Shown piece after piece: positions 61,028 through 61,059 of a stretch of DNA of 64,000 nucleotides. Location: the NCBI RefSeq assembly GCF_056712565.1, contig NZ_CM160072.1; one strand, given 5' to 3'. The position numbers and the translations under genes were made by a program. The first letter of the stretch is position 1. The number at the start of each line of letters is the position of its first letter. The notes beneath the pieces were generated by a model. The model was not told where the DNA came from. It searched no databases and was given only the letters and a program-made list of their open reading frames with translations.

Positions 61028-61059
61028 TTTTGGCGATTGAGTGCCGGACGGTGTACAAA

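Follow-up and report, generated by a model that had tools for sequence, protein, structure and literature searches.

The setA-less sgrS-leuD junction of Escherichia coli: probable outcome of an old deletion, with likely re-introduction of setA into the A/B1 lineage

The window analyzed here, a stretch of 64,000 nucleotides, differed from the sequence of the E. coli type strain ATCC 11775 / DSM 30083 by 4 mismatches in 16 kb. It contains the sgrR-sgrS locus, in which sgrS converges on leuD, itself adjoined by leuC and leuB. The following features were identified.

3' end of the window, - strand: thiQ-thiP-thiB; upstream of them lie the TPP riboswitch and then sgrR
58944-59043, - strand: TPP riboswitch located 5' of thiB (Rfam RF00059, 66.1 bits)
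59077-60732, - strand: sgrR, transcriptional activator of sgrS, divergent from sgrS (open reading frame; sgrR label in the identical ATCC 11775 sequence)
60754-60781, + strand: sgrS promoter-like hexamers AAGACA and TATATT separated by 16 nt (consensus scan)
60800-61026, + strand: SgrS small RNA, allele of the CFT073/B2 type (Rfam RF00534)
60821-60952, + strand: sgrT, a 43-aa open reading frame within SgrS (translation; ATCC 11775 annotation WP_001248768.1)
60915-61025, + strand: 3' part of sgrS of the diverged haplotype, with the breakpoint just upstream of 60915
60961-60986, + strand: base-pairing (seed) region of SgrS, CATCATGTGTGACTGAGTATTGGTGT, identical to that of K-12
60997-61031, + strand: intrinsic terminator of SgrS, GCCAGCAG-TGATTAT-CTGCTGGC followed by T6-C-T5 (terminator scan and folding)
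61026-61065, no strand assigned: deletion scar or spacer, 40 bp in place of 1,261 bp of K-12 (BLAST and pairwise alignments)
61060-61665, - strand: leuD, 3-isopropylmalate dehydratase small subunit, convergent with sgrS (open reading frame; label in the identical ATCC 11775 sequence)

The SgrS match spanned the full RF00534 model (positions 1-232) with a score of 228.9 bits (E value of 1e-65), the curated gathering threshold of the family being 37 bits. In addition to this score, the gene displayed divergence from sgrR with a conserved promoter region, the seed region, a terminator with its U-tract, and an embedded sgrT. The promoter-like site ends about 19 nt before the SgrS 5' end and is identical, at the same relative position, in K-12; its hexamers would function as the sgrS promoter. 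The sgrT open reading frame starts with ATG, is preceded by an AGGAGG Shine-Dalgarno sequence, and encodes C-terminal residues unlike those of K-12 SgrT. The seed region, whose base-pairing role has been described previously (Horler and Vanderpool, 2009; PMC2760817), was kept in all outgroup sgrS sequences inspected. The seed and the terminator with its U-tract form a putative Hfq-binding module at the 3' end of SgrS, Hfq binding being predicted. The region of the TPP riboswitch (58944-59043) is the one labelled as the small RNA SroA in the K-12 annotation.

The sgrR-sgrS/sgrT-setA locus of K-12 and the window have in common sgrR (96% DNA identity), the sgrS promoter, the sgrT open reading frame, the seed, and the terminator architecture. 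They differ by the lack, in the window, of setA and of the hairpin located between setA and leuD, by the 3' half of sgrS (about 80% identity), and by the C-terminus of SgrT. The sgrS-setA operon of E. coli K-12 was reportedly described by Sun and Vanderpool in 2011. In the MG1655 annotation, sgrS (77367-77593), setA (77621-78799; 1,179 bp), and leuD (78848-79453) occur in the order and with the setA size (about 1.2 kb) assumed by the original prediction on this DNA. Cotranscription of setA with sgrS in K-12, which was also part of that prediction, agrees with the read-through of the SgrS terminator reported for this strain (Morita et al., 2022; PMC9765468).

In the window, the predicted absence of setA between sgrS and leuD was borne out by alignment and BLAST, and the interval assigned to the junction (61028-61059) was correctly located. 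The leuD stop codon (61060-61062; CTA on the + strand) is found 40 nt past the end of the terminator stem and 33 nt past the 3' end of SgrS defined by Rfam, in line with the distance of about 30 bp originally given. The K-12 sequence replaced by the spacer consists of setA itself (1,179 bp), the 27 bp 5' of it, and the 48 bp that separate it from leuD and include a hairpin. Searches of the whole 64-kb window with SetA (tblastn) and setA (blastn) returned matches at chance level only (best E value of 0.16 over 41 aa) and gave no sign of a degraded setA; the eventuality of an intact setA relocated nearby, raised along with the prediction, was thus answered in the negative within these limits. 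The window contains neither an sgrS-setA operon of the K-12 type, with setA about 27 bp past the terminator and expressed by read-through, nor, at or near the locus, an MFS protein (PF07690) of about 390 aa of the SetA/SetB/SetC type.

A census of the junction was obtained with a 601-bp query spanning it (coverage of at least 80%) in 5,426 complete E. coli genomes. The setA-less junction was present in 2,159 genomes, with 96.5-100% identity, and full-length setA in 3,239; of the 5,399 genomes matched at all, 5,398 belonged to one or the other set. The sets are complementary and therefore mutually exclusive, indicating that, at the sensitivity of megablast, setA was not relocated in the setA-less genomes. 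These complementary counts and the content of the 64-kb window suggest that the source genome is devoid of setA elsewhere. The original prediction had presented the loss of the linkage with setA as a property of this strain. The absence was confirmed but not its peculiarity, since about 40% of E. coli, as well as several sister species of the genus, normally have the setA-less haplotype. An assembly or window artefact collapsing setA, for which we found no argument, is refuted by the occurrence of the same junction in thousands of independent complete assemblies, among them those of the type strain, CFT073, O157:H7, IAI39, and 042, and has a virtually nil probability. A recent setA deletion specific to the strain or to its clone, which the bare comparison with K-12 would by itself suggest, is refuted by the census and by the homologous spacers described below: the same or a homologous junction occurs in 2,159 E. 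coli genomes of diverse lineages and in three other Escherichia species, making this explanation extremely improbable.

Among reference strains, setA was present in K-12 and IAI1 and absent from ATCC 11775, CFT073, O157:H7 strain 4276, IAI39, and 042. We take these strains to belong to phylogroups A (K-12), B1 (IAI1), B2 (ATCC 11775 and CFT073), E (O157:H7), F (IAI39), and D (042). The occurrence of the setA-less state in B2, D, E, and F and of setA in A/B1 is an ordinary pattern, which has already been published; the A/B1 sublineage was reported to have "acquired" SetA (González-Alba et al., 2019; PMC6896753).

The SgrS of CFT073 and O157:H7 is of the same allele class as that of the window, with the same setA-less synteny. 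These alleles and their synteny were covered by Horler and Vanderpool (2009; PMC2760817), who reported 88% identity between the CFT073/O157 allele and K-12 SgrS. SgrT (WP_001248768.1) is identical in ATCC 11775, CFT073, IAI39, and O157. CFT073 differs from the window by a 709-bp IS200C that interrupts the T-run of its SgrS terminator at the point corresponding to position 61025/61026 of the window (3862-4679 of the CFT073 locus sequence). This insertion leaves a shorter uninterrupted U-tract context and parts sgrS from leuD. O157:H7 strain 4276 differs from the window by an ATT instead of an ATG at the start of sgrT (aligned to 60821-60823), a start-codon change reported for O157:H7 in 2009 (Horler and Vanderpool, 2009; PMC2760817). 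PGAP nonetheless assigns to the O157:H7 gene the protein accession used for ATCC 11775.

The polarity of the difference was assessed by a scan with SgrR as the query and one genome per species, yielding 80 loci. As this set has no locus from E. fergusonii, E. marmotae, E. ruysiae, or Shigella, the deletion is placed within the genus on an incomplete sample. This comparison across Enterobacteriaceae, proposed with the original prediction, located a SetA homologue (75-99% amino acid identity) directly 3' of the sgrS position, mostly between sgrS and leuD, in 77 of the 80 species-level loci. These loci cover Citrobacter, Salmonella, Enterobacter, Klebsiella, Raoultella, Kluyvera, Leclercia, Lelliottia, Trabulsiella, Yokenella, Atlantibacter, Buttiauxella, and others. 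The linkage between sgrS and setA is therefore ancestral for Enterobacteriaceae. The three setA-less loci were those of E. albertii, E. whittamii, and Escherichia sp. E1V33. In all three, the gap between sgrR and leuD was exactly 329 bp, as in the window, and the spacer was clearly homologous to that of the window, the differences being limited to a few substitutions and an indel of 2 bp; a homologous spacer was also present in O157:H7. The common spacer and the 329-bp gap thus indicate one old deletion rather than repeated loss.

Remnants of the ancestral intergenic regions were sought in the spacer. Its left part (GGCTTTTTTCTTTTTGGC) corresponds to the first bases of the region between sgrS and setA in Citrobacter (GGCTTTTTTCGTTTTGGC). 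In the Citrobacter sgrS-setA-leuD locus, the terminator and the first 16 nt or so that follow it are almost identical to those of the window (GCCAGCAG..CTGCTGGCTTTTTTCGTTTTGGC), and LeuD ends with ...FMR* in both; Citrobacter differs from the window in that it keeps setA and a longer setA-leuD intergenic region with REP-like hairpins. The ...FMR* C-terminus of LeuD in the window is common to Citrobacter and Salmonella, and alignment points to this form as the outgroup state and to the ...FMN* of K-12 as derived. The right half of the spacer was compared with the setA-leuD intergenic regions of 20 setA-positive taxa; the best match, to a Citrobacter MAG, was 13 of 16 bases, a value reached by 9 of 500 shuffles before correction for the 20 comparisons and hence not robust. 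A deletion promoted by microhomology (TTTxTGG) is speculative.

These observations are consistent with an ancestral enterobacterial order consisting of sgrR, sgrS-setA, and a convergent leuD. In the Escherichia lineage, setA and most of the intergenic sequence on either side of it would have been lost in one old deletion event of about 1.2-1.3 kb, and a spacer of about 40 bp would have been left to separate the terminator of SgrS from the leuD stop codon. This haplotype is now the normal one in E. albertii, E. whittamii, E1V33, and phylogroups B2, D, E, and F of E. coli. The opposite polarity, according to which setA was never ancestral at the site and the K-12 type gained a foreign transporter gene from another genus, would account for the word "acquired" used by González-Alba et al. 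(2019; PMC6896753) and for the derived appearance of the setA-positive state within E. coli. This explanation is very unlikely in view of the presence of setA at exactly the same place 3' of sgrS in 77 of 80 enterobacterial loci. Moreover, the identity of K-12 setA to those sampled outside Escherichia did not go beyond 72-83%, and the gene branches as an Escherichia gene; it is therefore not a recent import from another genus. Our analysis and that of González-Alba et al. (2019; PMC6896753) thus agree on the phylogroup pattern, the difference being that the outgroups considered here make setA ancestral at the site. The A/B1 event is more aptly called the return of an ancestral gene to its original location than an acquisition.

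The presumably restored segment was delineated by comparing the window with K-12, the background divergence being about 3%. Within sgrS, a single base differed between 60800 and 60914, the 5' half being 99% identical, whereas identity dropped to 79.8% between 60905 and 61025 (121 bp). The latter segment of the window was 96-97.5% identical to its counterparts in E. albertii, E. whittamii, and E1V33. On the other side of the junction, leuD was 89.7% identical to K-12 in its last 150 bp, the value rising to 97.7% further in. The setA gene of Escherichia (K-12) was 77-79% identical to those of Citrobacter and Salmonella, as compared with 77-80% for sgrR, and branched at the position expected for Escherichia. 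It is thus as distant from the outgroups as sgrR and therefore qualifies as a gene of the Escherichia lineage. Diversity of setA within E. coli was low: identity reached 99% or more in 3,228 of 3,241 genomes, and K-12 and IAI1 were 99.8% identical in setA versus 96.7% in sgrR. When K-12 SetA was used to look for intermediate proteins of the Escherichia lineage, such as one from E. fergusonii, the 120 matches listed were essentially all E. coli entries with about 100% identity. Finally, the K-12 block comprising the sgrS 3' half, setA, and the intergenic region was 98-100% identical to positions 5450-6900, approximately, of the locus sequence of Escherichia sp. MOD1-EC7003, whose flanking genes (sgrR, thiB, and leuC) were only 90-94% identical to those of K-12. 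This contrast in identity bears the signature of a recent inter-lineage recombination at the locus.

Together, these data argue for one old deletion in Escherichia followed by the re-introduction of a setA block into A/B1 by recombination, which we consider to be the best explanation overall and a probable one. The E. coli ancestor would have been setA-less, like the sister species, and A/B1 would have regained setA at its original site. Most likely, the K-12 block is a deeply diverged allele of the Escherichia lineage that entered the A/B1 ancestor by homologous recombination, with one breakpoint inside sgrS just upstream of 60915 and the other in the last 150-300 bp or so of leuD. The setA-positive arrangement of K-12 looks derived within E. 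coli, though the linkage is ancestral for Enterobacteriaceae. The more specific proposal of a trans-species polymorphism, in which A/B1 regained setA by introgression from a cryptic Escherichia lineage related to MOD1-EC7003, has in our estimate an even chance of being correct. The exchange between K-12-type E. coli and MOD1-EC7003 may have occurred in either direction.

The main alternative is an ancient presence/absence polymorphism with lineage sorting, in which both haplotypes would have coexisted in Escherichia from a time preceding the separation of the species, A/B1 having retained setA without any regain. The divergence of about 20% between the haplotypes in the sgrS 3' half, far above the 4% separating the window from E. 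albertii, is compatible with such an age, as are the occurrence of each haplotype in more than one species-level lineage and the distance of Escherichia setA from Citrobacter and Salmonella, which equals that of sgrR. However, long retention does not readily account for the very low diversity of setA in E. coli (the 3,228 genomes with at least 99% identity and the K-12-IAI1 contrast between setA and sgrR reported above), nor for a block nearly identical to that of another species-level lineage within flanks of 90-94% identity. Combined with the sharp breakpoint in sgrS, these features are better explained by a recent import or sweep. In addition, phylogroups B2, F, D, and E, usually regarded as basal in E. 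coli, are those without setA. Retention by lineage sorting is thus unlikely, although clearly less so than the explanations dismissed above, and the re-introduction of the block by recombination is preferred. Two other segments of the window, 59145-59600 in the 3' part of sgrR and 61666-62115 in the 3' part of leuC, were 88.7-93% identical to K-12 versus a background of about 97%; these divergent patches suggest further mosaic recombination tracts.

The stem of the SgrS terminator (60997-61019) contains 8 bp, 6 of which are G-C, and a 7-nt loop, and is followed by TTTTTTCTTTTT. Its folding energy was -15.5 kcal/mol (z score of -4.0), versus -13.2 kcal/mol for K-12, in which the stem closes with a G-U pair and precedes a U8 tract; in the window, the stem closes with a G-C pair and the tract is U6CU5. 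The stronger stem was considered as an adaptation to the loss of setA. This was ruled out since the terminator type of the window also precedes setA in Citrobacter and is therefore ancestral. On the - strand, no terminator was detected by a scan of positions 60600-61300. Past leuD on this strand, the SgrS hairpin, in reverse complement, is the first stable structure encountered; it is followed by GUGGCGAUUAACACC, without a U-run. A role for the SgrS hairpin as a bidirectional terminator serving leuD is unsupported because of this lack of a U-tract on the - strand. In K-12, the setA-leuD intergenic region harbors a hairpin (GCCCGGUCAAAUGACCGGGC; -17.4 kcal/mol on the leu strand) that is absent from the window.

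The SgrS terminator of K-12 blocks transcription only partially, and the read-through RNA serves as the setA mRNA rather than as a functional small RNA (Morita et al., 2022; PMC9765468). The SgrS of the window would instead be a stand-alone, SgrR-dependent transcript ending at a strong terminator, and any read-through would generate an RNA antisense to leuD and no setA mRNA. Transcripts of the leu operon would meet the reverse complement of the SgrS hairpin without a U-tract, the leu-side hairpin of K-12 being gone. The SgrR regulon of the window strain would be without setA.

At position 60812 (nucleotide 13 of SgrS), the window has an A in place of the G of K-12, resulting in the AGGAGG Shine-Dalgarno sequence of sgrT. 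A stem-loop occluding the sgrT ribosome-binding site and specific to the K-12 type was reported in 3 of 15 E. coli strains (Horler and Vanderpool, 2009; PMC2760817). The A at 60812 and the rarity of the occluding stem-loop suggest that SgrT is probably better translated in the window strain. With respect to efflux, the paralogue SetB is 52% identical to SetA at the amino acid level. Its gene, which lies outside the window, was detected in 5,409 of the 5,426 complete genomes, so that the source strain very probably has it as well. Since setB is nearly universal, sugar efflux capacity as such was probably not lost. To our knowledge, setB is not controlled by SgrR. The setC gene (yicK) is variable, being full-length in 3,722 of the 5,426 genomes, and adjoins the tRNA-Sec (selC) integration hotspot.

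Studies of glucose-phosphate stress dealing with setA cotranscription and regulated read-through of the SgrS terminator were performed in K-12, which limits their generalization. In about 40% of the E. coli sequenced, setA is missing and both the SgrS 3' half and the SgrT C-terminus are of another type; this holds for the type strain, O157:H7, uropathogens of phylogroup B2, and strains of phylogroups D and F. In these strains, SgrS read-through cannot act as a setA mRNA. The phylogroup pattern, already published, is unsurprising to specialists, and the modestly new angle is restricted to K-12 setA as an ancestral gene that introgression would have brought back, along with an exchanged 3' half of SgrS. 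On a small scale, the locus neatly illustrates a gene that disappeared early in the history of a genus and apparently came back to its former position through recombination. If introgression did occur, the laboratory model of the SgrR-SgrS-SetA stress response describes a recombinant allele with a minority history rather than the ancestral state of the species.

Two further differences were noted in the neighborhood. Between araC and yabI, at about 53085-54629, the window contains an IS630 transposase remnant and two hypothetical genes of 849 and 423 bp, according to the ATCC 11775 annotation; they are absent from K-12 and 042 and present in IAI39. The gene for the type III secretion effector EspY2, absent from the window (B2) and from K-12, is located between the TPP riboswitch/thiB and sgrR in O157:H7, IAI39, and 042 (positions 1-146, 12289-12858, and 6759-7328 of the respective locus sequences).
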